From: Candidatus Bathyarchaeota archaeon
GTDB lineage: Archaea > Thermoproteota > Bathyarchaeia > Bathyarchaeales > WUQV01
Assembly: GCA_029934005.1 (NCBI GenBank)
Contig: JAOZNA010000003.1
Location: forward strand, 1-33,487
DNA: 33,487 nt
Direction: 5' to 3'
This document shows positions 6,001 through 23,362 of the stretch, piece after piece (the stretch's first letter is position 1; each line of letters starts with the position of its first letter). Position numbers and translations under genes: made by a program. Below the pieces are notes generated by a model that was not told the origin of the DNA, searched no databases, and saw only the letters and a list, made by a program, of their open reading frames with translations.

Positions 6001-6947
6001 CAGATATCGTTGCTTCAAGACCGCTTCCTAAGACCGCGGGACTTCCATGGAACACAATCGGGTACATAGACGCTTCAACAGATGATCGTGTAACAGCCTC
6101 AATAGCTATGAATACCTCTTCGCTGGACGGCATAATGCCTGGGATTTTCATTCACAGCGGCTTCGATGCAAGTGCAAGCGACTGGTTAAAAGGGTACATA
6201 GCAAGTATGTTGGCAATAGAAGAAGCAAGGGCGTTCCTAATGATGCCAAAGACATTAACACAAACACAAGGTAACATTCATGCGGCAACGTTCTCTGTAA
6301 CAATGTTACCAGGAGGATGGGGAGAGGGCCACACAACCTTTCCAGATACGGGGCTCGATCAGGATTATAGATACGTGGACCTTATGCTTATCATCTCGAC
6401 ACATTACGAAAGTTATTTGTGGACCGTACCTGGTGCTACGTATTCTCATTCATTATCTGAAGCGGATTTCAAATTTGACAGTGCTGACACGGAAGTATGG
6501 GCGGAGATTGACCTTGAACACTCTGGATGGGAAACTGGCGACTACGAATCGGTAGAATTTCTGAACGATCTCGGTTGGTGGTTCGTGGGGCTTTCCGCAG
6601 ATATTCTTGGAAGTTTCATCGATGTCCCATATCTTGGATCAGTTGTGGGTTTAATCCCCGTTCTCATAAGAGGACCTAACCCACCAAATCTTCAGCCCGA
6701 CCTCAGTCATCATGTATGGGCCAACGGAACGTTGATTGATCCAAATGATGACAATTGGGGTACGATGAGCTTTTATTTCAGAGTAATCTTCCGAATAGAC
6801 GGGCTACCGAGAGATTACGTATTTGATCTTGGAATGGCTTCGTGGATCGATTGCTGGGTGTTTCCAGATGAAGGGCTACCATATCATTTTACAAGGTTTG
6901 CAGCTATTTCATTTAATACGCAACTGCAATTCACGGTGACTGGATGA
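3045..6947 (+). CDS. Giant secreted multidomain protein of unknown function
   Basis: 1300-aa ORF with an ATG start preceded by AGGTGG. The signal peptide is MKKGVGVFIILLILCSSLTTATA. Two alpha/beta-looking modules are visible (IRIAVLD...FDILVMDG and INIFIVKAS...RAVIVNTHGETIPMP). A Gly6 linker (4791-4808) is followed by Cys and a beta-rich module (CPYVSVWNGTHF...). There is no C-terminal TM segment. Confidence 0.85.
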   Translation: MKKGVGVFIILLILCSSLTTATAISYVEPIRIAVLDASAEQMPRLGDFDILVMDGIWLQEKIRSNDAELISFVKDTILAGVPTLTFNGGYIIHKIIGNLPIKEYLNQPIMIHGLKVYSEKVNNLMRSEELFIGGVNTTSTEMMAKACEWAIKRISKTDYSTMGNDPDVEVNFAQTTGSPYWEHIATHQWIYYMNPYGNLNMTRCWYALVNDGSNTYDWFNLVMETTSVPGKAVYGSDWRTADIWNWVDADYFRDPNLLIDYGPPNTQGVSTVNYQIGVEAGEQGAVVTCKMAVSYSVQDVPVEDQSDPSEQLAKWWHNVPEQGDTGMNPYTIKPGITMRVLPIAPTSIRNWYQVQYMQPNWFWGWLIPDKYMSPEFIVDTVIDYPRSINIFIVKASDSSSSWIENVEDVKAGILEAVNDANTRTRVKLSNEQINWYEITSTQDLLGLVLNPPLRAVIVNTHGETIPMPSWYFGPSIHITSPSDGQTIYSSPTVYADVYPPQGTSLQLSQPEGYTQWSYVWVMWYRPSTGASSWMPMYPNASGGGTYYKYISLPAYDTYQIYVVAAANNLVSVAHITVHYQYSGGGGGGCPYVSVWNGTHFMIDNNLLRGGFSETDITDYYKLEQTLVPNDGIYSLQLSEFEEEHNFIDQVKLLAIDHASNVSVAVSPYGEILTYMNPHPPVSAITNEHKNVKKLLSSIDGKYYQGYNGSYITLNFGDELDVSQGAKLVIRSDRFAVKTSIRIQVQDKNGEWNTVASFVPRTYWSTEIFDMTEYLPDAKGNLKVRLYFTANHKIDFVGLDTSPQATLKIKEGCLVSATHSTGLKILGSESTQIKATYKNLLKSDNVYTELTPGYRIQMNFTVPEKDATDEIRDFIFIVEGHYRKAGSPYGCMVNWQDWFDLLEDRTRNYGWIWTNVAGYSCYYFGNTWYESKIPEAYREIPGENGLKQFLSKDVTAYFYDGHVARRGLDFLERTGFDPQVYNDLPTTDIVASRPLPKTAGLPWNTIGYIDASTDDRVTASIAMNTSSLDGIMPGIFIHSGFDASASDWLKGYIASMLAIEEARAFLMMPKTLTQTQGNIHAATFSVTMLPGGWGEGHTTFPDTGLDQDYRYVDLMLIISTHYESYLWTVPGATYSHSLSEADFKFDSADTEVWAEIDLEHSGWETGDYESVEFLNDLGWWFVGLSADILGSFIDVPYLGSVVGLIPVLIRGPNPPNLQPDLSHHVWANGTLIDPNDDNWGTMSFYFRVIFRIDGLPRDYVFDLGMASWIDCWVFPDEGLPYHFTRFAAISFNTQLQFTVTG

Positions 6948-8329
6948 AGTTAAAATATCTAGCAATTTCAACCTTTGCTATATTCCTAATCTCCCTTCTT
7001 TTTTCTGCAAGCATTATTCAAGCTCAAACACAGATTTTAACTGAAACTAGAAAATCAGCCATTGTAAAGGCACTCACTCAAAAACAGCTGAGAAAATGGG
7101 CGGAATTTGAAGCAATGATTTTAATCATCTTTAAAATTTTAGATGCCCTCAAAGAAACAAATATCACAGAAGCGATAGTTAGAATTGTTTCTCAGCAGAA
7201 TGTAACAATAGATAATGTAACATTATGGGGTTGGCCAGCTAAGTTCGGGGAGTCATTAACATATGTTACTAACCCACATAGAATTAATACATGTTTGACC
7301 GCTCTGAGGTTGGTTAACGCCCTTAACCAGGTGAATAAGGAAGCTTTAATTGAAATGGCTCTCTCCAGGTATAATGAATCCGATGGAGCTTTCCATGAGC
7401 CCGTATTCAAAATCGAATACTCTGATGGCAGAATAGAAAATCGCACAATCACCGGTTTTCCTCTTGAATTTTATGCTATAAGTGATTTGGCGTATGCAGA
7501 ATCCAATATAATTAGCACATTTGAATGGATTTCGATTCTCGCGCAATTGAATGCGTTAGATAAAATCAATACAACAAAAACTCTGGAATGGATTTTAAGC
7601 TGTAAAGCGGAAAATGGAGCATTTAAGCCATTTCCTGAATCTAGTCCAGAATATTTGCCTCCTTGGTCATCTTTACGCACAAACCCATTTTATGTAGATA
7701 GGTATGGAACAGGTTTAGCCTATACCTACGCAGCGATCTCAACGCTTAAAATCTTAGGTTATCTTAAAGATAATAATGCCATAAATAGAGAAAAGATAAA
7801 GGAGTATGTGTTTTCATGTTTAGTAGTTACTACCCGTGATACAGCTTATTTCAAGGCTCATCCAGACGATAAACGAGGGACAGTTGGCATTGGAGCGAGG
7901 CAGTATAACTACTACGCTGTAAAAACATTAGAATGCATTGGGATGCTCGAAGAATCAATGTCCGAATTAATAAGGGTTCGGAAGTACCTCCTTGAAGAGT
8001 ATCAAAATCTTTACTATAGAGACTCGTGGCTATTGCCAAATAGGTTATGGAATGCCACATGGAAAGAGAATACATGGGCAGATGTCTACGGCCTTTTTGG
8101 AGGATCCTTTACCCCAGTACAAGCAACATATTATGCAGTACTGACTTTAAATTTAACAAAAAGTTTACACTTTCTAAACCAACTTACACCAGCAGCTTTA
8201 AAAGCATGGTACAATTTAACTATTTTATCCCTTGTGATATCTGGAATCTCAGTTTTAGGCATTCTCATCTATAAAGAAATATTAAGAAAAGGGAAGAATG
8301 AAAAAGCAATAATTTCCATGCCTCTCTAG
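6944..8329 (+). CDS. Secreted, C-terminally membrane-anchored repeat protein, possibly alpha/alpha-toroid (prenyltransferase/squalene-oxidase-repeat-like)
   Basis: 461-aa ORF whose ATG overlaps the upstream TGA (ATGA at 6944-6947), with GGTGA 5 nt upstream. The signal peptide ends ...SASIIQAQT. Spaced motifs recur: YNESDGAFHEP, CKAENGAFKPFP, FSCLVVTTRDTAYF. The C-terminal TM segment is ILSLVISGISVLGILIY followed by KEILRKGK. Confidence 0.8.
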   Translation: MKLKYLAISTFAIFLISLLFSASIIQAQTQILTETRKSAIVKALTQKQLRKWAEFEAMILIIFKILDALKETNITEAIVRIVSQQNVTIDNVTLWGWPAKFGESLTYVTNPHRINTCLTALRLVNALNQVNKEALIEMALSRYNESDGAFHEPVFKIEYSDGRIENRTITGFPLEFYAISDLAYAESNIISTFEWISILAQLNALDKINTTKTLEWILSCKAENGAFKPFPESSPEYLPPWSSLRTNPFYVDRYGTGLAYTYAAISTLKILGYLKDNNAINREKIKEYVFSCLVVTTRDTAYFKAHPDDKRGTVGIGARQYNYYAVKTLECIGMLEESMSELIRVRKYLLEEYQNLYYRDSWLLPNRLWNATWKENTWADVYGLFGGSFTPVQATYYAVLTLNLTKSLHFLNQLTPAALKAWYNLTILSLVISGISVLGILIYKEILRKGKNEKAIISMPL

Positions 8330-8767: not shown

Positions 8768-8855
8768 TGGTGCGGGGGGTGGGATTTGAACCCACGAACC
8801 CCTACGGGACAGGCTCCTGAAGCCTGCGCCTTTAACCTGGCTCGGCAACCCCCGC
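8768..8855 (-). tRNA. tRNA-Leu (anticodon CAG), class II with long variable arm, genomically encoded CCA
   Basis: The reverse complement is GCGGGGGTTGCCGAGCCAGGTTAAAGGCGCAGGCTTCAGGAGCCTGTCCCGTAGGGGTTCGTGGGTTCAAATCCCACCCCCCGCACCA. The fold has a 7-bp acceptor, a 3-bp D stem, anticodon stem CAGGC/GCCTG with loop TTCAGGA, a variable arm CCC-GTA-GGG, and T arm GTGGG-TTCAAAT-CCCAC. A TTTT run follows the 3' end. Confidence 0.95.
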
Positions 8856-8887: not shown

Positions 8888-9511
8888 TTATTTTTTTGCG
8901 ATATTTATTTCATACAATCCTTTCACCATTGACATCGTGAAAATAGCAGCATAAGCTATATGTGGAAATAAGTGTTCTATTGGTACTTTTAATGGGAACG
9001 AAAACAAAGTTGGAAGAAATATAGCTGTGGTTGGGATAAAGAGAACCAAATTTAAATTATTCATTTTTCCAAAAAGTTTTCTTAAGTCGTTGCTTTTAAC
9101 CATAATTACTATGGAAATCAAGAAACATATCCACTCTACAGTTATGTTTGTTGGACTGTCAATTGGTATGTCCATTCCATAATATCTTATAGAAATTGGC
9201 CATAGAATCTGCGTTTTTCCAGCGAAAAAGTCGCCTATGGTTGAGTGTTGCACTAAAGCTATTAAGTATGGAACTGATTTTTTGCTATATACAATGAGGA
9301 ATGGAATGAAGAAGAGAAATGCGACTATTGTTGAGTGGGTTGGGCCTCTATGATTTAGTTGCGGAATGAGTATATCAATGTCTGGTAATACTGAGAAAAG
9401 AAATATAAGTGGAAGGTTTACTTCTACTTTAAGGAGTTTTGAAGATAATTTGCTGCAGATATAGCCCAATGCTAAATGTCCAGGCGCAAACGAAGTTATT
9501 TCCTCCTTCAT
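8888..9511 (-). CDS. Membrane-bound metal-dependent hydrolase, YdjM/DUF457-like
   Basis: The ORF-track start at 9517 is TTG. An in-frame ATG at 9511 gives MKEEITSFAPGH.... The protein is polytopic and hydrophobic, with LPDIDIL ... NHRGPTHS motifs typical of DUF457. Confidence 0.7.
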   Translation of the reverse strand: MKEEITSFAPGHLALGYICSKLSSKLLKVEVNLPLIFLFSVLPDIDILIPQLNHRGPTHSTIVAFLFFIPFLIVYSKKSVPYLIALVQHSTIGDFFAGKTQILWPISIRYYGMDIPIDSPTNITVEWICFLISIVIMVKSNDLRKLFGKMNNLNLVLFIPTTAIFLPTLFSFPLKVPIEHLFPHIAYAAIFTMSMVKGLYEINIAKK

Positions 9512-9613
9512 ATGCAAAACTTCGTGTACTTATTAACATTTAGTTTGTTTCTTCTTGTCGTAAATTTCGAAATCTTTATTTATTGTGTATTCGTGTTGCG
9601 CTTCAACACAAAA

Positions 9614-9626
9614 ATATTTATTAAAT
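9614..9626 (+). promoter_or_regulatory. TATA-like box, spacing consistent with a leaderless transcript starting near ATG 9645
   Basis: atatttattaaat is centred about 25 nt upstream of ATG 9645, and no SD-like motif lies between them. Confidence 0.35.
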
Positions 9627-9644
9627 CTTAAGATACGGTATTCA

Positions 9645-10130
9645 ATGGTGATGCCAATAAAAGCCCAAACCTACCTCCCAAAAATGTCCATTCTACTAAT
9701 AATAATGGTGGCAGTAGCATCAGCCATAACAGCCTTAATAGCTTCAGGCATCCTAACAAGAAACATCAGAGTTCCAAACAGTGGGCAAGTAAAAACTATA
9801 GGAATAGGCGCTTATCAAGATCCTCAGTGCCAAATTCCCTTACAATCAATTGATTGGGGAGACTTACTCCCTGGAGACCAGAAAAGCAGAACAATTTATT
9901 TAAAAAATGAAGGAGATGTGACAATTATCCTTACTCATACCGTAGGAAATTGGACTCCAACGGAAGCGCAAAACTATCTAAGTTTGACTTGGAATCGAGA
10001 AAACTATGTAGTTCAACCTAACGAAATCATCAATGCTACTTTAACCCTCACAGTTAATGCAACTGCACCTGGATTTGGAAGTTTCACGTTCGACTTGACA
10101 ATTATAGGAACAGAACAAGTAGAAGCGTAG
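9645..10130 (+). CDS. Small signal-anchored secreted beta-sandwich protein (paralog family member 1)
   Basis: The track ORF starts at GTG 9585. ATG 9645 (MVMPIKAQ...) is better placed relative to the TATA-like box. An N-terminal TM segment (MSILLIIMVAVASAITALIASGIL) is followed by a beta-rich domain (IDWGDLLPGDQKSRTIYLKNEGDVTIIL ... NATLTLTVNATA ... FTFDLTIIG). This domain is collinear with ORFs 17827-18375 and 15668-15925. Confidence 0.75.
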   Translation: MVMPIKAQTYLPKMSILLIIMVAVASAITALIASGILTRNIRVPNSGQVKTIGIGAYQDPQCQIPLQSIDWGDLLPGDQKSRTIYLKNEGDVTIILTHTVGNWTPTEAQNYLSLTWNRENYVVQPNEIINATLTLTVNATAPGFGSFTFDLTIIGTEQVEA

Positions 10131-10446: not shown

Positions 10447-11352
10447 TTAATCCTCTACAAAACTGTACCAAAACTCCACGGTTTGAAAATCTGTTGATAC
10501 ATTATCCTTTTCTATTGTAACTATTTTTCCAGATGCCTTAGCTATTGCACATGCTATAGCGCTTGCGAGTGGACATCCGAGAAAATGAACACTCTTTAAG
10601 TTTTGTTCTCTTTTATACAAATTCTTATAAATTGAATCATCTATTCTTACGTAAATTTTTTTCTTATCCCTTTTCATTTCAACTTCCTTTGCTAGCTCCA
10701 AACTTTCCGTAATTATTTGTGGGAGCCTTTCAAGAAGTGTCTCTAAATCTACCTTAGTAACATCTTCTCTCAGTTCTCTTTCAATTTGGTTTAGCAAGCC
10801 AAGTCCAGGTGGAGAAATACAGATTCCATTCGGATTTTTAAGTAGAAATTTGCTTTTCGCAATTTCTTCTATAGAGGGCATTTCTGGCCGAGTATCCGCT
10901 GATATGAAGACAACCATTTCTTTTAAGCCCCTAAGATATTCCGGCAGATAGACATCCTTCGGATAAGGCGGAATATAATAGCTTCTGCCTTTAAATTTTA
11001 AGTCATTTACTATTCTATCAACCGTTATGTATGTCGAAGTTGCTGCTAAGTCCAGTAAACTGCCTTTAACATATCTTATCGGCTTTATGAAGAAGAACAG
11101 AAATCCCCAAAATGTTAAGCTTAGCCCAATAAACGCGAGTATTTGGGATTCGCTAAGCACAGACAATACAAGTACAGTAATCCCAGAGGTCGTAAGCGTT
11201 ACTCCCACTTTTTCAGAGGGGATTCGTTTTGAACGTTCTAATTCAAACTTTAAACTTTCAATTTCAGATTGTAATTCCCGTATCCTTTCCACTAAGTATT
11301 TAGTTGTCCGCAGTTCAGAAAACGAACTTTCAACTTTCTCTTTTTCACTCAT
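10447..11352 (-). CDS. Membrane protein: N-terminal coiled coil + 2 TM + about 190-aa C-terminal domain, unknown function
   Basis: The track start at 11364 is TTG; an in-frame ATG at 11352 gives MSEKEKVES.... A heptad-like segment reads LVERIRELQSEIESLKFELERSK. The TM pair is VGVTLTTSGITVLVLSVLS / ILAFIGLSLTFWGFLFFFI. The gene starts 40 nt downstream of the archaeosortase stop. Confidence 0.75.
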   Translation of the reverse strand: MSEKEKVESSFSELRTTKYLVERIRELQSEIESLKFELERSKRIPSEKVGVTLTTSGITVLVLSVLSESQILAFIGLSLTFWGFLFFFIKPIRYVKGSLLDLAATSTYITVDRIVNDLKFKGRSYYIPPYPKDVYLPEYLRGLKEMVVFISADTRPEMPSIEEIAKSKFLLKNPNGICISPPGLGLLNQIERELREDVTKVDLETLLERLPQIITESLELAKEVEMKRDKKKIYVRIDDSIYKNLYKREQNLKSVHFLGCPLASAIACAIAKASGKIVTIEKDNVSTDFQTVEFWYSFVED

Positions 11353-11392
11353 TTTTAACAACAAATAAAACTTTTACATATTTTTAAGCTTT

Positions 11393-13456
11393 TTAGATTT
11401 CTAATTCATAAACTTTCCACACTAATTTAGGAACATTGTCAACGGACACAACATCCTTCCTTATAAAGCCATACTCCTCAAGGCGATTCAAAATGTCAAT
11501 TAATTCATCATTTTTCATAGATTTTCCAGTTTTTTCCCTAAAAGCATTCATAATTTCCATAGTCCCTACGTACTTTTTCTCCTTAGCCAAATCTATGACT
11601 GTCTGGAGAACGAGTTTATCATTTTTAGAGGCAAACCCTCTAAAAATTTTCAAATTTCTCATTCTTTTTCTTAATTCGTAACTATATTGACCTATTTTTG
11701 TAACAATAATTAAAACGGTTGAAATAACGAGTAGAAATTGTAACGCCGGGATTCCAAGTGAAATTAAACTCTGAAATTTTAGCGGTTCCCAATAAGAAGC
11801 AATAATTTTTCCTATACTCAACAATTCATTTTCAAATTCCCTATAATTTGTTGACTCATATGTTAATATTATTAAGCTTATTCTAACATACTTTTGTCCC
11901 ACAGTTACTCCTGTATCAAATGTTGCTCTTTCAAACCAATAAAGTGTAATCTGCGTATAGTTTTGTGGAGCTTTAAACGCCAAATAACGTGCAATTATAG
12001 AGGTGCCTTCCAGCAGATCTATTTCTCTGGAATCCAGCACTTTTACCAGAGGGTATCGTCCATGAGCCATTTGCCAGGTTATTAAGCATACTTCCCAACT
12101 ATGAAGGTTGGAAATGCTATTTGCAACATTTATTGAAACATATACGGTTGGTTTTGAGTAGTTTATGGGAAAATAAGCATACACAAGTGCAGCGTCTTGA
12201 TGTGCAATTTTTTCATAGTTTACGTCTCTGTATAAAAATTTAAGCTGATAATCTTGTATTTCTGGGAGAATTTCTGTTGTGTTTGTCCAGCTGGTTCCCG
12301 ATGATATTTTAATTGATTCTCCAGCCATCGCAAAAGTTGGTGCGTTAAGGCTTATGGTCACAAGCCAGCATCCAACTAGAAGCACTAGAACCTTCGCCCA
12401 AGTTTTAAATGAAATTTGCCAATTAGACTGGTTTAGAAAGTTTCCACATCGTAAACAGAAGGAAGCTTTCTCTTTTAGGCTTCTTTTACATTGTCGGCAG
12501 AACTTAATTTCCCGCGGTTTTGTAAAGAATTTTATTTTCAGAACTCTATCTGCAAAAATCAACGTGAAAAACATTCCGATGAATATTAGGATTATGCCTG
12601 CTATAGAGTGAAAAACGAACATGGCAATTTCTTCGCCGAAATAATGTCCTATCGAAACTATGGATGTTATCCGAACAATGTTTAAAGCTTCAAAAATAAA
12701 AAAGCCGCCTATAAACATCAAAATTTTCCTTTTTATTGAAGCTTTGCTAATGAAGGCTAAGAACGCTGAAAACATCGTGAATGCTATTAAGGAGTACATT
12801 CCTGAACATGGTAGGTCAACCGCAAACGAGACAGAATTCGAATCTGATAGTAATTGGATAATGGGTGGTCCATAAGAATATGATAACTTGACTGGAATGC
12901 CAAAACCTCGAAGCAGTATATAGGATATTTGGGTTTCAAAATTTGCCATAGATCCGCCAACAGCGTACATAAACTCCATTGGAGGCGGAACCAAGAAAAA
13001 TAAGAAAACTATTGGAAGAATCGATGTGATTAGTACTTTAGAATTTGATAGGACTAATACTATTCCCATTAAGAATATAGGAAGCGACATAAGGTGATAT
13101 TCCAACGGATAAAAAGTGTGAGAGCCATACCAATAAACCAAAAAAGCTATAAGGCATAAAATAACCCCGGCTAATTCATTCAGGTACTTTGTCGCCGACT
13201 GCTTCCGAATCTTCTCTAAACTAATTGAAGCTTTTATTAAATCCTTTTTTAAATAAAAGAGGAAAATAGCAAAAAATGGCACTAGGAGAATATGGCTGAA
13301 AGCCTCTGTTTGAACAGCCTCGTTAAACAAGATCTTAAGGTCATCACCATAAACAATAAAAATTAGCAAAATAACCAGAACAGCAAAAAAAATACATCGA
13401 TAATTAGTTTTTACGCTTATTCTAATTTTCTCTAACATTCTCATAGCTCTTACCAT
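11393..13456 (-). CDS. Archaeosortase/exosortase-family transpeptidase fused to zinc ribbon, EpsI-like ectodomain and C-terminal winged-helix domain
   Basis: 687 aa with an ATG start. The N-terminal motif is EAFSHILLVPFFAIFLFYLKK. The candidate catalytic Cys is in DLPCSGMYS (C217), the Arg in ALNIVRITS (R262) and the His in VFHSIAGII (H283), all within a polytopic core. CRQC-x10-CLRC spans aa 320-337. After a TM segment, an ectodomain carries EpsI-like LHSWEVCLITWQ and ITLYWFERA. A second TM segment (aa 564-586) and a basic patch are followed by a wHTH-like region, aa 611-683. Confidence 0.85.
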   Translation of the reverse strand: MVRAMRMLEKIRISVKTNYRCIFFAVLVILLIFIVYGDDLKILFNEAVQTEAFSHILLVPFFAIFLFYLKKDLIKASISLEKIRKQSATKYLNELAGVILCLIAFLVYWYGSHTFYPLEYHLMSLPIFLMGIVLVLSNSKVLITSILPIVFLFFLVPPPMEFMYAVGGSMANFETQISYILLRGFGIPVKLSYSYGPPIIQLLSDSNSVSFAVDLPCSGMYSLIAFTMFSAFLAFISKASIKRKILMFIGGFFIFEALNIVRITSIVSIGHYFGEEIAMFVFHSIAGIILIFIGMFFTLIFADRVLKIKFFTKPREIKFCRQCKRSLKEKASFCLRCGNFLNQSNWQISFKTWAKVLVLLVGCWLVTISLNAPTFAMAGESIKISSGTSWTNTTEILPEIQDYQLKFLYRDVNYEKIAHQDAALVYAYFPINYSKPTVYVSINVANSISNLHSWEVCLITWQMAHGRYPLVKVLDSREIDLLEGTSIIARYLAFKAPQNYTQITLYWFERATFDTGVTVGQKYVRISLIILTYESTNYREFENELLSIGKIIASYWEPLKFQSLISLGIPALQFLLVISTVLIIVTKIGQYSYELRKRMRNLKIFRGFASKNDKLVLQTVIDLAKEKKYVGTMEIMNAFREKTGKSMKNDELIDILNRLEEYGFIRKDVVSVDNVPKLVWKVYELEI

Positions 13457-13496: not shown

Positions 13497-14177
13497 TTAT
13501 AGTACTCTAAGAATTCTAGAGATCTTACCTCTATACTTAAAGGTGGCAAGTGCCATCATAAACATAAAAACACCCAAAATAGGACCGAACGGATACTGTG
13601 GAACAACATTTTGAAGCGGTACTGTAACTTCTATTATTGGCACTTGAGTACCATCAATCCAGAGAATAACTGCGAGAACTTGTCCTGGTCCCGGAACAAA
13701 ACCTTCCCCGTTATTCTCCGCTTCTTCCACCATATTCCTTCCTTCTTCGGTAGAAGGCATATTTCCACCATCAACAAAATACCATATTGCTTCCTTTATA
13801 TCATCCTTTGTTCCCTGCTTATAGTTTAGAATATAATTGACTTTATCCCAGTCTGGATCTGAATGCGGATTATCCTCATCATAGCTTGAATACATTCTGG
13901 CACTGTATTCTACACCAACACTAATGTAGTGATGCTCATCAACACACCATCCCAAATATATTCCATCTGAAACATGATAGCCAGAAGGTACATCGCTGAG
14001 CATTATATTGTAATAGCAGTTTTCTCCAGGATATTTAATTACTTCCATGGTGATTTCGCTTGAAGGAAGAAGAATGTATGGTGCATTTACAGCTGCATAG
14101 ACAGAACTAGACAGAACTAAAAGTAAGCCAACAAAGGAAATTGCGAATGCTATCTTAATCTTTTTTATAGTATACAT
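13497..14177 (-). CDS. Secreted protein with thioester-domain-like motifs and C-terminal sorting signal (putative archaeosortase substrate)
   Basis: 226 aa with an ATG start and GAGG 7 nt upstream. The signal peptide ends ...SSSVYAAVN. Motifs present are GWCVDE (C78), VNYILNY and IKEAIWYFVDG. The tail is QNVVPQYPFGP + hydrophobic helix + KYRGKISR. Confidence 0.85.
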   Translation of the reverse strand: MYTIKKIKIAFAISFVGLLLVLSSSVYAAVNAPYILLPSSEITMEVIKYPGENCYYNIMLSDVPSGYHVSDGIYLGWCVDEHHYISVGVEYSARMYSSYDEDNPHSDPDWDKVNYILNYKQGTKDDIKEAIWYFVDGGNMPSTEEGRNMVEEAENNGEGFVPGPGQVLAVILWIDGTQVPIIEVTVPLQNVVPQYPFGPILGVFMFMMALATFKYRGKISRILRVL

Positions 14178-14242
14178 GTAATTCCTCTAATCTTTTAATA
14201 ATCGTTATATAAATAATGTAATGTAGAATTTTTATAGAAATC

Positions 14243-14767
14243 TTAAGTGTTTTTTCTACTTAAAAAGGTTGTAAAGACAACTGCCATCAAAAGTATGATG
14301 GCAATGGTTCCTAAAGGAGTATAAGGTATTGTGTTAAATGACGTAGCTCTCACTGGGAAGCTATCCTGGTCACTTTGTGAAGTTTGGCCTTCGCTATTAA
14401 TGAATTTTGCCTTAACTGCCCACTCGCCGACTTCATCTGGTTGATAAGTATCTGTGAACCTATATACTTCTGTACCATCTGGCACTCCCGGCTCACCATT
14501 AGTATACCATATAGTATAAACTTCAACAGTAACATTTCTCTTAACTGTCGTATCGTTATATATCCATGTAAAAATAACTTTAGTTGTCGTATTGTCAGTT
14601 GTATCCGCCCAAGCTGCGACATTTTCACCAACAAGAACTTCTTGTCCATGATGATCCGTTGTTACACGATAACCTGATCCAAGCGATTTTTGAGCGTAAG
14701 CTGCGCTAAAGAATGAGTTAGCAACAAACATGAAAATTAACATCGATAACGCAAGTACTCTTTTCAT
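14243..14767 (-). CDS. Small secreted beta-rich protein with C-terminal sorting signal (putative archaeosortase substrate)
   Basis: The track start at 14776 is TTG; ATG at 14767 gives MKRVLALSMLIFMFVANSFFSAAYA, a signal peptide. The tail is FNTIPYTPLG + TIAIILLMAVVFTTFL + SRKNT. A TATA-like cttataaata lies about 30 nt upstream. Confidence 0.85.
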   Translation of the reverse strand: MKRVLALSMLIFMFVANSFFSAAYAQKSLGSGYRVTTDHHGQEVLVGENVAAWADTTDNTTTKVIFTWIYNDTTVKRNVTVEVYTIWYTNGEPGVPDGTEVYRFTDTYQPDEVGEWAVKAKFINSEGQTSQSDQDSFPVRATSFNTIPYTPLGTIAIILLMAVVFTTFLSRKNT

Positions 14768-14859
14768 TATGACCAACTTGTTATTATTCTTTTTGTTATT
14801 TATAAGTCCATATTGATCTTTACTCTAGAAAACTTCTTGTATTTTCCATTTTCGATTTC

Positions 14860-15546
14860 CTATGTGAATTTTGACTTGAGTATTGTTTTCAGAATTTTTA
14901 TTCCATCAAACAAAACTTGGAGCTTTGATTGATGATATTTTCTCTTTCTACAGTTTATGGGTATTTCTTGGTATTTAAATCCGTTTTTTAAACCTTTAAC
15001 TGTAAGTTCGGTTTCAATTTCGTATCCTTCAGAAGTTAAGTCTAGTTTTTCTAAAACTTCTCTTTTAAATGCCCTAAAACCTGTTTGGCTATCCGTCACG
15101 TATTTCCTTGTCAGAGTCATTATTATCGTATTTATTATTCTATTACCCACCCGATTCAGCTTAGTTGTTGAATCTTTCCCATTTCCCAAAAATCTTGAGC
15201 CAACAGTTATGTCTATACCATTAAAAAGAGGCTTAATCAACTTGGGAATTTCTTTTGGATCATGAGCACCATCTGAATCTAAAGTTATTATTATTTGACC
15301 TTTCGCATGTTTGAACCCTTTCCTTAAAGCGTATCCCTTCCCCCGATTTCTTCCGTTTGAGAGCACCGTTACCTTATATTTTGAAACTATCCACTTTGTT
15401 TTATCGGTTGATCCGTCGTCTACTACTATAATTTCATATGGATTCCTTATGTTTTCTAATACTGAAATTGTCTTATGGAGCACTTCACCTATGGTTCTCT
15501 CTTCATTGTATGCTGGAATAATCACTGAGATAGTCGAATAATCCAA
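14860..15546 (-). CDS. GT2-family glycosyltransferase, polyprenyl/dolichyl-phosphate sugar synthase-like
   Basis: 228 aa with only a TTG start available (GGGAGAG upstream). Motifs: ISVIIPAYNEE, IIVVDDGSTDKT, RGKGYALRKG, TLDSDGAHDP. Confidence 0.85.
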   Translation of the reverse strand: MDYSTISVIIPAYNEERTIGEVLHKTISVLENIRNPYEIIVVDDGSTDKTKWIVSKYKVTVLSNGRNRGKGYALRKGFKHAKGQIIITLDSDGAHDPKEIPKLIKPLFNGIDITVGSRFLGNGKDSTTKLNRVGNRIINTIIMTLTRKYVTDSQTGFRAFKREVLEKLDLTSEGYEIETELTVKGLKNGFKYQEIPINCRKRKYHQSKLQVLFDGIKILKTILKSKFT

Positions 15547-17826: not shown

Positions 17827-18375
17827 TTAGATAACCTGTATGCAAATATCAAAACTGAAGGTTTTTACATCGTTTTCAATCAGGAAATCTATGAAATCAT
17901 CTGAGTCTGCAACCTTCAGTGTTAAAGTTAGTTCCAGAGTTTGGTTTGGATGTATTAAAGTTTCATTTAGACTTACCTTTAATGTTAAATAATCCGTCTT
18001 ATTTACTGGGCCTTTAACTATTTTTCCCTGTGAATTGTTAAAAGCCCAATTCATCGTTTTTATAATTAACATGGCATCAACATTACTTCTACTAGTCACA
18101 TTTAAAGTTCGGTTTACCATAATCCCTGGATAAACAGTTCCCCAATCTAAGAATTTTTGGTCATTACTCAACTCTTTTAGGTCGCCCCCATAGACTTCAA
18201 CATTAATTGTGTGAATTGTTCCAATACTTGGAAGGTAGATATCGCTGTTGTGGCTTAGCCATATGGAAAGTAAAGTTTGAAGTAAAATGGTGATCAAAAC
18301 TGCTGCAATTATTGACAATAATGTTTTCTTGTTTTGTTTAATAGTGTCGGCCAGGAATTGAAAAGAAATTTTCAT
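17827..18375 (-). CDS. Small signal-anchored secreted beta-sandwich protein (paralog family member 2), rich in N-x-S/T sequons
   Basis: The track start at 18384 is TTG; ATG at 18375 gives MKISFQF.... The TM segment is LLSIIAAVLITILLQTLLSIWL. The domain is collinear with 9645-10130 (LDWGTVYPGIMVNRTLNVTS ... LELTLTLKV ... FSFDICIQV). Six sequons are present: NRT, NVT, NNS, NKT, NET, NQT. Confidence 0.8.
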   Translation of the reverse strand: MKISFQFLADTIKQNKKTLLSIIAAVLITILLQTLLSIWLSHNSDIYLPSIGTIHTINVEVYGGDLKELSNDQKFLDWGTVYPGIMVNRTLNVTSRSNVDAMLIIKTMNWAFNNSQGKIVKGPVNKTDYLTLKVSLNETLIHPNQTLELTLTLKVADSDDFIDFLIENDVKTFSFDICIQVI

Positions 18376-18414
18376 TGATTTCAACCAACAATAAGTAGGG
18401 GTATTTTATATTAA

Positions 18415-20001
18415 TTAAGGGTTATGATATATTTCATTTGATAGTTTTTCCATAAGGGCTAGCGGGACATTTATCAATTTCGATATAATTCCTAGGCCTG
18501 AAAATATCATTCTAAGATTATAGATGTCTGCCTGATTAATTGCACCCATGATTGGAGCTGTAACTACATATGTCGCGAGAAATGTTAAGCCTCCTATTAT
18601 CAGTTGAATCCAATCTGTGTATGTTATCAAACTTATAACTAAAAATGTGGCTGTTGCCGCAAGGGTTGATGCTGCAAGGATTCTGAATGATGAATTTACA
18701 TTTGCTTTAACTTTGTAATGTTTCCATACCCAATATAGCCCTAAGCATATGCTTGGTATTCCCGCTACTATACCAGTTAATATTAGTCCAACTATCCCCA
18801 TGTTAGGTATCAGTAAAAGAGCTAGTGGCACTCCGAATAGGAAATTTATTAGGGATAGTTTTAGCTGAGTTTTGGTTTCGCCTAGCCCCATCAGTAAGCT
18901 TCCCAAGCTTAGACTTCCGAAGATCATGAAAAGGTAGTTTATCACATATAGAGTGAGGAGGAAGGGTGCATCTCTCCATTTTTCGCCAAAGAGCGTACTC
19001 ACCATAGGCTTTGACAGAACCATCATTGCGACCGTAGTTGGAACAAGCATTAACGACATATATTTGACTGATGATGTAAATACCGTTTGAAGTAATTCTA
19101 ACTCACTTTTTGGATTAATTTTTGAGAATGCTGGAAACAGCACGGTTGATACTGGAATTGTAAAGAATGTTAACACGGTGGCAAATTGGGTTGCTGCTTG
19201 ATAATTTCCTATAACGGTGTCGGTGCAGTAAATAGCCATCATGAAAGCATAGAATTGTGCTAAAAGTCCGGTTATGATCCACGATAATGAAAGGGGGACT
19301 CCATAATGTAACATTTTCTTTAAGGTTTTAGTGATGCTTATTTTCTGGGGATTCTTTTTCTTTATTTTTCTGATTATGGTTAGGTATAGTATCACAAGAC
19401 CTACTATAGCTGATATCAAAAAGGAAACCGTATGCCCAAGGATTACTCCTAATGCGCCATAGCCTATTAGTACTAGAAAGGGAGATGCTGTGCTTTTTAC
19501 TATAGCTTGACATATATTTGTTAAGCTTTTTAATTCCATTCTTTCGAAGCCTGTGAAGCTTGACTGTGTAGCTCTAAGGAGGGCTTCTGCAAAGATCGTA
19601 GTAGAGGCTATTGCTATTAACGGCGCTGCCTCCGGTCTGCTGAAAATTGTTGAAGCGATAGAGTTCGAAAGGAGAATTAAGATTATTGACAAAATCAAGC
19701 CCGCTGTTACCTCAAAAAGTATACCTGTTACAATTATTTCGTAAATATTTTCTTCCTTATTTTCAACCCGTAAACTAGCTGTATATTTAGTTATAGCCGA
19801 ATTAACCCCCCAATCTCGAAAGAGAATGGCCGTATATGCTGGAATTAAAGCTATAGAGTATAACCCATATTCCTCGGGCGTTATGAGCCTCACCAAGATT
19901 AGTGTACCTATAGCCATAATCAGCGTTGATCCGGCTACGCCTATAAATAGTTGAAAGACTCCAGTTGCAGATTTCTTGCCGATTTCTAAGGCTTTTTGCA
20001 T
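18415..20001 (-). CDS. Wzx-like oligo/polysaccharide flippase (MOP superfamily polysaccharide biosynthesis protein)
   Basis: 528 aa with an ATG start and about 14 hydrophobic helices throughout. The N-terminal segment GVFQLFIGVAGSTLIMAIGTLILVRLITPEEYGLY is typical of the family. Confidence 0.8.
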   Translation of the reverse strand: MQKALEIGKKSATGVFQLFIGVAGSTLIMAIGTLILVRLITPEEYGLYSIALIPAYTAILFRDWGVNSAITKYTASLRVENKEENIYEIIVTGILFEVTAGLILSIILILLSNSIASTIFSRPEAAPLIAIASTTIFAEALLRATQSSFTGFERMELKSLTNICQAIVKSTASPFLVLIGYGALGVILGHTVSFLISAIVGLVILYLTIIRKIKKKNPQKISITKTLKKMLHYGVPLSLSWIITGLLAQFYAFMMAIYCTDTVIGNYQAATQFATVLTFFTIPVSTVLFPAFSKINPKSELELLQTVFTSSVKYMSLMLVPTTVAMMVLSKPMVSTLFGEKWRDAPFLLTLYVINYLFMIFGSLSLGSLLMGLGETKTQLKLSLINFLFGVPLALLLIPNMGIVGLILTGIVAGIPSICLGLYWVWKHYKVKANVNSSFRILAASTLAATATFLVISLITYTDWIQLIIGGLTFLATYVVTAPIMGAINQADIYNLRMIFSGLGIISKLINVPLALMEKLSNEIYHNP

Positions 20002-20107: not shown

Positions 20108-21090
20108 TTAAAGACCTACTTGATTTTTGTACGCTTGTTCAATTACTTCTAGATCTCTCAATCCATCTTCTTCTGTTGGCGTTGGCATCTTGTTGTGAAC
20201 CAAGCAGTTTACGAAATGTTGAAGTTCTGCAAGGTGGGCTTGATAGAACCGAGATGTATTTGTAGCTAGTATTTGAATTACTGTTAACAGTTTATTTTTA
20301 GGTTTATGTTGCATCTGGGCATGCTTTACAGTTCCGAAAAGTTTGACTTCAAGATGATATTGATGAGAAAACCAGCCCACCGATATAACCGCTTTTGTTC
20401 CATTTTTAAATTTAACTAGACATATTGCTGAATCTTCAAACGGCATGTTAAATCTATAACCTAAATAACTTTTTATACCTATTACTTCACCGAAGTACCA
20501 TCTTAGAAGGTTTATTACATGGCTTCCTAAATCGATAAGAGCTCCTCCTCCCGTCAGTTCTCTGTTAAACCACCATTCTGGCACTTGTCTTGGTGTCAAA
20601 CCTTCAGCTCTATGGAAAAATGGTCCAGAACTTATGTAGGTAGCGTGGGCGATTTCTATGTCGCCCAAAATTCCATTCCGAATTTGCTGTTTCAAGTGTT
20701 GAAACGCTGGATCGAATCTAATCGGATAACCGATCATCAACTTTACTGCGTTTTTCTTTGCCGCAAGACAATTTGCTTTGCTTCTTCAGTATTTCTTGCT
20801 ATTGGCTTTTCTAGGAATGTGTGCTTTTCCGCCTCGGCGGCGCTTTTGGCACATTGAGCATGTAAATGTGTGGGTAATGCTATTATAACTGCGTCTATAG
20901 CCGGGTCTTTTAGAAGCTGTTCATAACTCCCATAAGTTTTTCTGATGCCTGCGGTCTTCGCCATTTTTAGAGCTTTTTTGGATAGATCCGCTACAGCTAT
21001 CAGTTTAGCGTTCGCTAACTTTTTACAGTGTCGAAGATGAATTTTGCCTACGTATCCCAAACCAATTAAACCGAGTCCAAGCTTTCTCAT
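20108..21090 (-). pseudogene. Gfo/Idh/MocA-family NAD(P)-dependent oxidoreductase interrupted by a 1-nt frameshift
   Basis: The N-terminal ORF reads MRKLGLGLIGLGYVGKIH...FLEKPIARNTEEAKQIVLRQRKTQ*. The second frame is open from 20785 and reads ...AAKKNAVKLMIGYPIRFDP.... The canonical family sequence continues across the break near 20762-20770, which is not a homopolymer. Confidence 0.8.
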
Positions 21091-21103: not shown

Positions 21104-21996
21104 CTATTCTAATCCTAGTTTCTTGCTTATTCCTGTTTGAATAGCAATGGCGTATGCCCTGCTTAAAAGTTTAGTTTGCAAATTCTTCTTGGGGTAGCGG
21201 GATTTGAAGTATTCGAGTGGTTCACCCCTCGGGATGAAAGTTAAGTTTCCTAAACCTTCCTTACGGGCCAATTGGATATATCTTACTGCTTTCGGGTTCA
21301 CTCTCGCAATTTCCGCTGCCGCAACGTCTATTGCTACATGATCTTGGCTTGCCATTATTAAACCTAGTTTTCGTGGTTGAACCCTTGAAACTATATTTCC
21401 GTCGATTATGCAGAGGTCAAACTTCATTGCTTTGTTAATGGCGACTATTGCTTCATCAAGTACTGGGTGATATTTGTACTTTTTAGGGTAAGGATTGCAA
21501 CCGAAAATATTTTTTAATGCACATGTAATTTTGATTTTTTTATACTGTATTTTATCTTTGGCACGTTAATTTTTAAGTCCGCTTCTTTAATGGTCAGAGG
21601 AACCATTATTTCGAAAGACCGTTCCCCAGCAGTTACACGAACTACACTATATGGATCTTCAGAGAGACTAACAAGATTTACATTGTATTCGTCTGCGAGC
21701 TGCTCGTAACCTAGCATTCTAAAAGCATATTTGCATTGCATTGCAGAAGCATCCGATTCAACGATGGAGATGTTAACGTCAGGCGATATTTCTGAACGGA
21801 TTAAGTTGATTAATGCCCCTACAAACCTCGGATCAGTAGTTTGCCCAGTGGTGTAATCCCAATAATAACATAAGTTCGGTTTGATAACAACCTTTCTTGC
21901 CTTCTTTGGAAAAACATAATTGATGAGGTTTAGTGAACTCTCTATTGCTTTGGTTATATCTGAATTCTTAATCTGTACAAAACTTACGAGACTCAT
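21104..21996 (-). pseudogene. DUF362-like protein split by a -1 frame change inside an A7 run (pseudogene, sequencing error or recoding)
   Basis: The N-terminal part reads (M)SLVSFVQ...VVIKPNLCYY...INVPKIKYSIKKSKLHVH*. The -1 frame is open from 21565 and reads KKIKITCALKNIFGCNPYPK...MKFDLCIIDGNIV...ASQDHVAIDVAAAEIARV. The two frames join at T7 (plus strand) at 21535-21541. Confidence 0.75.
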
Positions 21997-23362
21997 AATA
22001 TTTTTCCTCAATTTTGCCGAGCCCTACCGCCCAATAGTCGAGTTTTCTGCTAAATTCCGTTGGATCAAAAATTCTCCGGCCGTCGATGACTATGGGGTGT
22101 TTCATATTTTTGATAAAATCCTTTGGATTTAACTTTTTAAATTCATCCCATTCTGTTACAATTATACAGCAGTCGGCGTTCTTTATGCAGTTAATCGGTG
22201 AAGAAGTATACTGAATGCTGTTGCCTAACCTTTTTCTTATATTTGGTGTTGCTGCGGGGTCATAGGCGGTGACTCTTGCCCCTTCTTTTAAGAGGGCCTT
22301 AATGATTTTTATGGAGACAGCCTCCCTTATATCGTCAGTATTAGGTTTAAAAGCCAATCCAAGTATAGCCACATGTCTTCCCTTTAGACTTCCAAGAGCT
22401 TCCTTGCATAACTTAATAGCTTTATATGGTTGGGTTTCATTCACCTTGTTAATTGCCTTCAGCAGGATCGGTTTATGACCCAAGCTTTTGCAAAAGGCTA
22501 TTAATGCCTTAATATCTTTTGGCAAGCAACTTCCTCCATATCCTAATCCTGCATTTAAAAACAACCGTCCGATACGCTTATCCAACCCGATGCCTTTAGC
22601 TACTACTGTTACATCTACGCCTGGAATTCTTTCACAAATGTCAGCGATGTGATTGATAAAGCTTATTTTCATGGCTAAGAAAGCGTTGTTGGCATATTTA
22701 ATAAGTTCAGCTGTTGAAAGGTTTGTTCTTAAAAGCGGAGGCGTTTGTTCACCATGTAGGTTTCGATACAGCATCTCTAACATGTCACCAGATTTTTTGT
22801 CATATTCACCAATTATAATGCGGTCGGGATGTAAAGTATCATTAACTGCCGATCCTTCCCGTAAAAATTCAGGATTTACACAGATTCCCCATTCTTCGCC
22901 GCAACGCTTGCCAGACTGTTTCTCAATAATGGGTTTAACAACATTTTCCGTTGTTCCGGGAATAACTGTGCTTTTAACGACGATTAAATGGTAATTTTCT
23001 TTTTCTTTCAATGCTTTCCCAATTTCGCGAGCTGCATTCTTAACATATTGTAGATTTATACTTCCATCACGCTTGCTAGGGGTTCCAACAGCAATGAAGG
23101 TAATGTCCGTCTTTAAAATAGCTTCTTTGCAGTCCAAAGTGCATTCTAAATAGCCCTCTTTCAAGTTTTCTTGTAAAAGATCTTTTAAGCCAGCTTCGTG
23201 GAAAGGAGGAATTCCCTTATTTATTAATATTACTTTCTTAGAGTCATGATCTATTGCAATTACCTTATACCCCTTACTGGCAAATCCTACCGCTATGCAT
23301 AAACCGACATAACCTGCTCCAATAATGGATATACGTTGTCTTGTCATAAAGGCTGCTTCCAT
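21968..23362 (-). CDS. ugd: UDP-glucose/GDP-mannose dehydrogenase family enzyme, probably UDP-glucose 6-dehydrogenase
   Basis: 464 aa. Motifs: ISIIGAGYVGL (Rossmann), GYGGSCLPKDIKAL (catalytic Cys motif), ILGLAFKPNTDDIRE. The alternative start M6 at 23347 looks more typical. The gene is adjacent to galU. Confidence 0.85.
   Translation of the reverse strand: MEAAFMTRQRISIIGAGYVGLCIAVGFASKGYKVIAIDHDSKKVILINKGIPPFHEAGLKDLLQENLKEGYLECTLDCKEAILKTDITFIAVGTPSKRDGSINLQYVKNAAREIGKALKEKENYHLIVVKSTVIPGTTENVVKPIIEKQSGKRCGEEWGICVNPEFLREGSAVNDTLHPDRIIIGEYDKKSGDMLEMLYRNLHGEQTPPLLRTNLSTAELIKYANNAFLAMKISFINHIADICERIPGVDVTVVAKGIGLDKRIGRLFLNAGLGYGGSCLPKDIKALIAFCKSLGHKPILLKAINKVNETQPYKAIKLCKEALGSLKGRHVAILGLAFKPNTDDIREAVSIKIIKALLKEGARVTAYDPAATPNIRKRLGNSIQYTSSPINCIKNADCCIIVTEWDEFKKLNPKDFIKNMKHPIVIDGRRIFDPTEFSRKLDYWAVGLGKIEEKYYESRKFCTD

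Follow-up and report, generated by a model that had tools for sequence, protein, structure and literature searches.

The stretch of DNA analysed here, referred to as a whole as the window, comprises 33.5 kb with a G+C content of about 37% and is of Bathyarchaeia origin. The present analysis concerns one gene of this window, predicted to encode an exosortase/archaeosortase-family enzyme of 687 amino acids (aa; in the following the sortase), and three genes putatively encoding secreted proteins that end with a common type of C-terminal tail. As stated in an initial annotation of the window, two of the latter, termed here the 226-aa and the 177-aa cargo, are located directly upstream of the sortase gene on the same strand. 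They form part of a run of five closely packed genes, in which the glycosyltransferase, the 177-aa cargo, the 226-aa cargo, the sortase and a 305-aa protein are separated by intergenic gaps of 83, 65, 40 and 28 nucleotides (nt), respectively. The open reading frames (ORFs) concerned are:

14860-15546, minus strand: GT2 glycosyltransferase (PF00535, E 2e-39)
14243-14776, minus strand: ORF of the 177-aa secreted cargo, likely start at the ATG at 14767
13497-14177, minus strand: ORF of the 226-aa secreted cargo
11393-13456, minus strand: 687-aa exosortase/archaeosortase-family enzyme (PF09721, TIGR04178)
10447-11364, minus strand: 305-aa protein with a coiled coil and a transmembrane (TM) hairpin (Pfam DUF7982 in orthologues)
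603-2600, minus strand: 665-aa secreted SBBP beta-propeller/TSP3-repeat protein (Pfam SBBP, TSP3_bac)

All three tail-bearing proteins possess an N-terminal hydrophobic, signal-peptide-like segment and a C-terminal hydrophobic helix followed by K/R. Their tails share an architecture in which [FQ]N-[VT]-[VI]-P-x-x-(P) is followed by a TM helix and K/R:

13497-13613, minus strand: tail of the 226-aa cargo, QNVVPQYPFGP-ILGVFMFMMALATF-KYRGKISRILRVL
14243-14338, minus strand: tail of the 177-aa cargo, FNTIPYTPLG-TIAIILLMAVVFTTFL-SRKNT
603-710, minus strand: tail of the 665-aa protein, FNVVPQPQ followed by the TM helix and KKG...

The ORFs and tails correspond to those described initially, except that the basic ends had been truncated. 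A hidden Markov model (HMM) was built from 60 tails of related loci, leaving out the window sequences (consensus RVTSFNVVPEYPLGTILALAAMFAALALFKKKK), and applied to the 100 window ORFs of at least 50 aa. The highest scores were obtained for 13497-14177 (37.1 bits), 14243-14776 (21.4 bits) and 603-2600 (7.9 bits), the next-best ORF scoring 4.0 bits. Since a model derived from related loci ranks exactly those three ORFs first, the tail is shared beyond chance. The cargos themselves are mutually unrelated, comprising a predicted thioester-domain-like fold, a small beta-rich domain and an SBBP propeller.

Within the 665-aa protein, residues 527-655, which cover the last domain of about 110 aa and the tail, align with four tail-bearing, sortase-adjacent proteins of other loci, and FNVVPQPQ is paired with FTVVPESY. 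Based on this alignment, 603-2600 may be regarded as a third, more degenerate substrate candidate. The ORF 6944-8329, initially put forward as a weaker fourth candidate, was rejected: it scored -1.0 bits with the tail HMM, and none of the sortase loci contains a homologue. Its C-terminus is an ordinary membrane anchor.

Conservation of the sortase-tail pairing

An alignment query against the GTDB representative genomes recovered 77 sortase loci, nearly all of them from Bathyarchaeia, whereas a single-sequence query recovered none. The counts for these genome loci cover 10 kb on either side of each sortase match. Among the 3111 ORFs encoded there, the tail HMM produced 90 C-terminal matches of at least 8 bits, distributed over 54 loci, compared to 2 internal matches. 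Tails defined by a regular expression (regex) were about 20 times denser close to the sortase, with 2.24 per 10 kb at distances of up to 1 kb compared to 0.10 per 10 kb at 5-10 kb, and 56 of 60 were found on the sortase strand.

The pairing was also examined in the reverse direction by scanning JGI metagenomes with patterns of the mature domain of the 177-aa family, that is independently of both the tail and the sortase. The tail ends 78 of the 79 complete copies among the 80 metagenomic homologues detected. Of the 11 loci that extend for at least 5 kb to either side, 9 encode a sortase at a distance of up to 5 kb; for a distance of up to 2.5 kb the count is 17 of 25. The synteny thus holds from the side of the sortase as well as from that of the cargo, in agreement with the arrangement proposed in the initial annotation, namely a dedicated sortase with its substrates.

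Furthermore, 177-aa homologues were detected in 19 sortase loci at a median distance of 68 nt upstream and on the same strand, and orthologues of the 226-aa cargo with VP[EQ]YP tails lie beside the sortases of seven loci. A homologue of the 305-aa protein is present in 51 of the 77 loci, likewise on the sortase strand, at a median of 48 nt downstream (28 nt in the window); for the orthologues in loci L078 and L079 the assignment to PF25939 (DUF7982) is on record. The DUF7982-type protein is probably an obligatory partner of the sortase. A search of a set of 5.8 billion proteins with the tail profile returned 11 short fragments from 335 candidates; this word-based collection is unsuited to a 40-aa profile and the result is silent on the distribution of the tail.

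The enzyme and its relation to named sorting systems

The sortase matches PF09721 (E 3e-32, 112.3 bits at a cutoff of 25.7), as do 30 of 30 aligned homologues, and TIGR04178 (60.6 bits at a cutoff of 23), the latter at residues 212-305. C217 (in DLPCSG), R262 and H283 lie in or close to the TIGR04178 match and do not vary among 30 homologues; by analogy, they would represent the catalytic-type residues. The window sortase retains every invariant residue of the family. Its predicted architecture is as follows:

Residues about 22-305: EpsH-type polytopic domain, with 7 TM segments in 22-302 predicted by the Kyte-Doolittle (KD) scale
Residues 313-343: zinc (Zn) ribbon (CxxC...CxxC)
Residues 367-560: outside domain of about 190 aa (motif LHSWEVC), with one TM helix before and one after it
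Residues 613-671: cytoplasmic winged helix, PadR/Cdc6-like

The AlphaFold2 (AF2) model of the enzyme (predicted local distance difference test score, pLDDT, of 80) shows the membrane part as a helical bundle. A Foldseek search with the whole model identified no solved exosortase, and a sequence search of the PDB was also without match. The only matches of the Foldseek search were weak ones of the outside domain to 3lyd, Apa and EagT6 (E 0.04-0.14) and PadR-like ones of the winged helix. For the C-terminal half no Pfam match to EpsI (PF11984) was found among 30 members; the alignments to XrtD and XrtW extend into the outside domain behind the EpsH part in several relatives, to model positions of about 424-441 of 486 and 494. 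Membrane sortases do not usually carry a domain of the DNA-binding type.

More than 380 full-length homologues of the sortase were found, almost all in Bathyarchaeia, the named ones originating from metagenome-assembled genomes (MAGs) of Bathyarchaeia, Bathyarchaeota or Thermoproteota. The existing names seen on family members are solely "hypothetical protein" or "exosortase/archaeosortase family protein", and a full-text literature search retrieved nothing relevant on exosortases or archaeosortases of Bathyarchaeia or Bathyarchaeota.

None of the named Xrt and Art models in NCBIfam r20 (XrtA-X, ArtA-G, cyanoexosortases) accepts the enzyme, and only the generic signatures are passed. It scores 87.4 bits with XrtW (cutoff 425), 86.2 bits with XrtA (cutoff 208) and 26.3 bits with ArtC (cutoff 100), misses even the cutoff of the generic 8TM_EpsH model (81 vs 105.6 bits) and is not matched by the ArtA and ArtB models at E<=1. 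Ten relatives, taken from both of the sortase clades described below, likewise remain below every named-subtype cutoff. On the enzyme and these relatives the bacterial XrtA, XrtW and XrtD models reach 60-128 bits, compared to at most 35 bits for ArtC and ArtF. Judged by these scores, the enzyme is closer to the bacterial Xrt exosortases than to the named archaeosortases. The initial designation as an archaeosortase needs correcting in this respect, the affinity of the enzyme being exosortase-like.

A similar picture emerged for the tails. With the window tails as the only query and a limit of E<=10, no match was obtained to any PGF, PEF, PIP, PEP or VPXXXP model of NCBIfam r20, and no named CTERM model of NCBIfam r20 or Pfam reached its cutoff. 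The sole CTERM match, to Heimdall-CTERM, covers the TM helix only and amounts to 12.2 bits at a cutoff of 24. Both results are consistent with the initial suggestion of a signal/sortase pair without an existing name. Among the 60 related tails, 8 match PEP-CTERM (TIGR02595, best E 8e-7) and 1 matches PEF-CTERM (TIGR03024, E 0.029). Matches to LPXTG_anchor (14 of 60 tails, best E 0.002) were dismissed, as they presumably fall on the TM helix and the basic tail. The initial statement that the motif does not read as PGF, PEF, PIP or PEP calls for a correction: the class to which the window tails belong is a relative of PEP and PEF, with E/D in 173 of 187 unique tails.

The bathyarchaeal system resembles PEP-CTERM/exosortase in its tripartite tail, where a V-P-E core precedes a TM helix and a basic cluster, and in its polytopic EpsH-family enzyme, for which the best specific HMMs (XrtW, XrtA, XrtD) are bacterial, XrtD and XrtW being of the fused EpsH-EpsI type. 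The location of the locus within a polysaccharide-synthesis cluster is a further likeness; Haft reportedly described PEP-CTERM/EpsH in such a setting in 2006. Moreover, distant sortase paralogues adjoin tails of the VPEY..G and the canonical VPEP type, and a number of these, with the reading VPEPATIA, match TIGR02595. However, the host, an archaeon, has no outer membrane, the motif of the window clade, P-[ED]-x-P-h-G-T, exceeds PEP by one residue and accepts Q/Y/S in place of E, and tails and enzyme fall under all curated cutoffs. The enzyme additionally carries the Zn ribbon and the C-terminal winged helix, and its DUF7982 partner gene is conserved downstream.

With PEF-CTERM/ArtC of methanogens the system shares the archaeal host and a P-E-aromatic core (VPEY, VPEF, IPDF) followed by a TM helix and a basic tail, and some cargo homologues end with IPEFPSFLVL..RRKR. 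However, the ArtC model reaches only 26-35 bits at its cutoff of 100 and comprises 274 positions, less than half the length of the bathyarchaeal enzyme, and a single one of the 60 tails matches PEF-CTERM. A signal peptide and a tripartite C-terminus are also found in PGF-CTERM/ArtA of Haloferax volcanii, the sole experimentally characterised archaeal relative. ArtA cleaves its PGF-CTERM substrates via Cys173, and a transfer to archaetidylethanolamine has been proposed (PMC7157517); this Cys-dependent cleavage with lipid attachment is directed by a different motif (PGF), and the ArtA model does not match the bathyarchaeal enzyme. The VPXXXP class, initially considered nearest, shares two prolines around a short spacer after V/I. 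This assignment was not borne out: the bathyarchaeal spacing is P-x-x-P instead of P-x-x-x-P, ArtB gave no match, and the 25 families with the most matches to the 60 tails do not include the VPXXXP model. By its motifs and profile scores the sortase/tail pair is an unnamed branch related to PEP-CTERM/exosortase and not a relative of VPXXXP/ArtB.

It might be argued that the tails simply belong to one of the named classes, either PEP-CTERM paired with an enzyme resembling exosortase A, or PEF-CTERM paired with archaeosortase C. P-E lies within the family consensus, and among 51 homologues of the 226-aa cargo 4 match PEP-CTERM and another 4 PEF-CTERM, one protein being named PEP-CTERM by NCBI; these matches, those of the related tails and the proximity of the enzyme to XrtW, XrtA and XrtD would fit such a classification. 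However, PEP-CTERM is missed by 52 of the 60 related tails and none of the models recognises the window tails. Taking furthermore into account that the sortase and its ten relatives lie far under every named cutoff, that the second Pro is displaced by one residue from PEP in the window clade (P-E-x-P) and that the 687-aa architecture includes a Zn ribbon and a winged helix, membership in a named class seems unlikely.

Tail variants and portability of the signal

The family consensus is N-V-[VI]-P-[ED]-x-P-[LVFI]-G-T. In the aligned set of 187 unique tails, the residues are distributed as follows:

Position 6: N (106)
Position 7: V (122)
Position 8: I/V (169)
Position 9: P (179)
Position 10: E (130), D (43), Y (6), Q (4), S (1), G (1)
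Position 11: variable, mainly V/Y/I/F/L
Position 12: P (143)
Position 13: L/V/F/I
Position 14: G (173)
Position 15: T (139)

Thus, the first Pro is followed by E/D in 93% of the tails, whereas the window tails carry Q, Y and Q. Since all three window copies are rare substitutions, the acidic residue of the PEP-/PEF-CTERM type which characterises the class is invisible from the window. In an alignment of 18 sequences of the 177-aa family, P151, P154 and G156 occur without exception; P151 is followed by D/E in 17 sequences and by Y in the window copy only.

The deviation raises the question of a decaying signal, in which Q, Y and Q would make poor substrates or none and the local system would be degenerate. 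At a family-wide frequency of about 6.5%, the naive probability of three non-acidic tails out of three is about 3e-4, and two genes of the nearby glycan cluster are split by frameshifts. However, both variants are retained in orthologues: the Y variant (IPYTP/VPYTP/IPYVP) in 177-aa orthologues of 36-97% identity from seven loci, and the Q variant (VPQYP) in four 226-aa orthologues of 46-90% identity. In locus L079, a single sortase is directly preceded by two cargos, one with IPYTP and one with VPEYP, and the window sortase, as described above, has all invariant family residues intact. Because the variants persist in orthologues, the substitutions are not regarded as decay, and a degenerate local system appears improbable. 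The non-acidic window tails suggest that the recognition motif has been relaxed or has shifted in this lineage. In view of the persistence of the variants, P-x-x-P-h-G may form the recognition core instead of the acidic residue. A subgroup of the 177-aa family from six metagenome loci carries Ser in place of the first Pro, which is otherwise 97% conserved (NVISDFPVVGTAGA).

The portability of the tail was assessed by BLAST clustering of tail-bearing proteins after removal of their last 45 residues. The mature domains formed 21 BLAST-unrelated clusters, and 76 of 86 proteins possess an N-terminal hydrophobic segment. Conversely, homologues of the 226-aa cargo elsewhere bear other anchors, such as PEF-like tails, a C-terminus named PEP-CTERM by NCBI, a dockerin or further domains. 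In being carried by unrelated domains and exchanged for other anchors on one domain, the tail behaves as would be expected of a sorting signal. In addition, the tail subtype follows the sortase clade (Fisher p = 1.4e-9): within 3 kb of the sortases of the window clade (37 sequences, mean identity 54%), 37 P-x-x-P tails were counted vs 6 others, while the distant clade (25 sequences) is accompanied by 2 P-x-x-P tails vs 20 of the VPEY-hGG or VPEP types.

Permanent C-terminal anchors with a conserved juxtamembrane stalk, inherited in few families while the sortase acts elsewhere, might account for the fact that much of the tail set stems from two large families of orthologues, with 28 and 10 members, and for the window copies without an acidic residue, but this explanation is very unlikely in view of the 21 unrelated domain clusters, the anchor exchange within one cargo domain, the dependence of the tail subtype on the sortase clade, the almost exclusively C-terminal HMM matches and the steep fall in tail density away from the sortase.

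We therefore consider it likely that the three tails serve the adjacent 687-aa enzyme, a member of a Bathyarchaeia-specific and so far unnamed subfamily, as C-terminal sorting signals. The following observations weigh against this assignment. The tail of 603-2600 lacks both the second Pro and the Gly, with a correspondingly low HMM score, no window tail has the acidic residue of the family, and in 19 of 48 well-flanked genome loci no regex tail was found within 10 kb, although most of these loci were recovered by the HMM.

Cargo domains, gene neighbourhood and proposed surface anchoring

The AF2 model of the 226-aa cargo (pLDDT 87.8) was compared to the PDB using Foldseek. The top 12 matches are all thioester domains (TEDs) of adhesins from Gram-positive bacteria, among them 5a0g (E 2e-5, probability 1.00, TM-score 0.52), Cpa (4c0z) and 2xi9. 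According to the predicted structure, the 226-aa cargo thus has a TED-like adhesin fold. TEDs are characterised by a Cys motif ([YFL]C-Phi-zeta), a Gln motif (Phi-Q-zeta-Phi-Phi) and a TQxx-Phi-W helix and have been found only in Gram-positive bacteria (Walden 2015, PMC4450167). Three motifs of the 226-aa family are candidate counterparts of these: C78 (W-C78-V-D) and Q178 (T-Q178-V-P-I-I), both invariant in 51 homologues, and a helical [DE]-[VI]-Q-x-A-I-W motif (W132, in a predicted helix), in which K128 replaces the Gln in the window copy. Sequence models remain sub-threshold (TQXA_dom, best E 0.053, 3 of 51). Q178 is a candidate for the thioester Gln on the basis of its conservation. The idea that K128 signifies the loss of the thioester Gln in the window copy was discarded, since that Gln belongs to the non-essential helical motif (PMC4450167) and Q178 is invariant. 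The small beta-rich domain of the 177-aa cargo shows weak similarity to immunoglobulin (Ig) domains of the PDB (E 0.003) and is possibly Ig-like.

The five closely packed genes are preceded by a glycan-synthesis cluster of about 17 kb on the minus strand (to about 30792), of which the GT2 gene 14860-15546 forms the downstream end. The cluster contains genes predicted to encode GT2 and GT4 glycosyltransferases, DUF2206, a nucleotidyl transferase, a UDP-glucose dehydrogenase, a GFO/IDH/MocA oxidoreductase, a Wzx-like flippase (18415-20001) and a pyruvyl transferase. GT2 homologues were found near the sortase in 31 loci and flippase homologues in 24. Two paralogues, which share 26% identity (E 2e-10), occur near the sortase in 40 (181-aa protein) and 30 loci (185-aa protein):

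17827-18384, minus strand: 185-aa protein, TM segment at the N-terminus followed by a beta-rich body, conserved around the sortase
9585-10130, plus strand: 181-aa protein, likewise with a TM segment at the N-terminus and a beta-rich body, conserved around the sortase, paralogue of 17827-18384

In the regions 20108-21090 and 21104-22011 (minus strand), two adjoining genes are disrupted. The gene of the GFO/IDH/MocA oxidoreductase is broken into two ORFs by a frameshift near 20741-20745 beside an A-run, and the DUF362 gene is also split by a frameshift; the L079 orthologues are whole (328 and 312 aa). Either sequencing errors or gene decay may account for the split genes.

On the other side of the sortase region, a gene for tRNA-Leu(CAG) is located at 8768-8855 (minus strand), between a YdjM-like gene (8888-9517) and a gene pair on the plus strand (3045-8329). 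The latter encodes a 1300-aa secreted protein without family assignment and, with an overlap of 4 nt, a 461-aa protein resembling a prenyltransferase-like alpha/alpha-toroid, which carries a signal peptide as well as a TM anchor at the C-terminus. No sortase locus contains a homologue of either protein. A scan for sigma-70 promoters and terminators yielded counts that match the shuffled expectation and is uninformative for an archaeal host.

For the handling of the cargos we propose the following scheme, in which the cleavage, its site and the acceptor are inferred from ArtA/PGF-CTERM and PEP-CTERM/exosortase. Each cargo would be exported via its N-terminal signal peptide (Sec) and retained in the membrane by the C-terminal helix and the basic stop-transfer cluster. 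The sortase would then read the juxtamembrane motif N-V-[VI]-P-[ED/Q/Y]-x-P-h-G-T, and C217, together with R262 and H283, would cut at this motif through an acyl-enzyme intermediate. The new C-terminus might be passed either to a membrane lipid or to a glycan provided by the flanking glycosyltransferase/flippase cluster. As a result, adhesin-like domains, namely the TED-like fold, the small beta-rich domain and the beta-propeller, would be displayed on the cell surface.

More speculatively, Bathyarchaeia could own an exosortase-type anchoring system in which an enzyme of the bacterial Xrt-like and not of the Art-like type, fused to an outside domain and a cytoplasmic winged helix and always accompanied by DUF7982, recognises the core P-x-x-P-h-G instead of the acidic P-E of PEP/PEF signals and displays TED adhesins acting as "chemical harpoons", probably linked to a glycan of local origin; we regard this extended scenario as conceivable, with the balance somewhat against it.

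Bathyarchaeia are abundant sediment archaea known mostly from MAGs, and hardly anything is known about their cell envelope and surface proteome. The tail and its enzyme provide a direct handle for predicting anchored surface proteins in this group, such as adhesins, propellers and TED-like domains, and recognition of the pair would improve the annotation of those members that presently carry hypothetical or generic family names. PEP-CTERM-like sorting would be extended into an archaeal lineage, in which the natural variation between E, D, Q, Y and S at one motif position represents a ready-made test of enzyme recognition. If the TED-like reading of the 226-aa cargo holds true, a domain class reported only from Gram-positive bacteria (Walden 2015) would be displayed on an archaeal surface by means of an exosortase-type tail.

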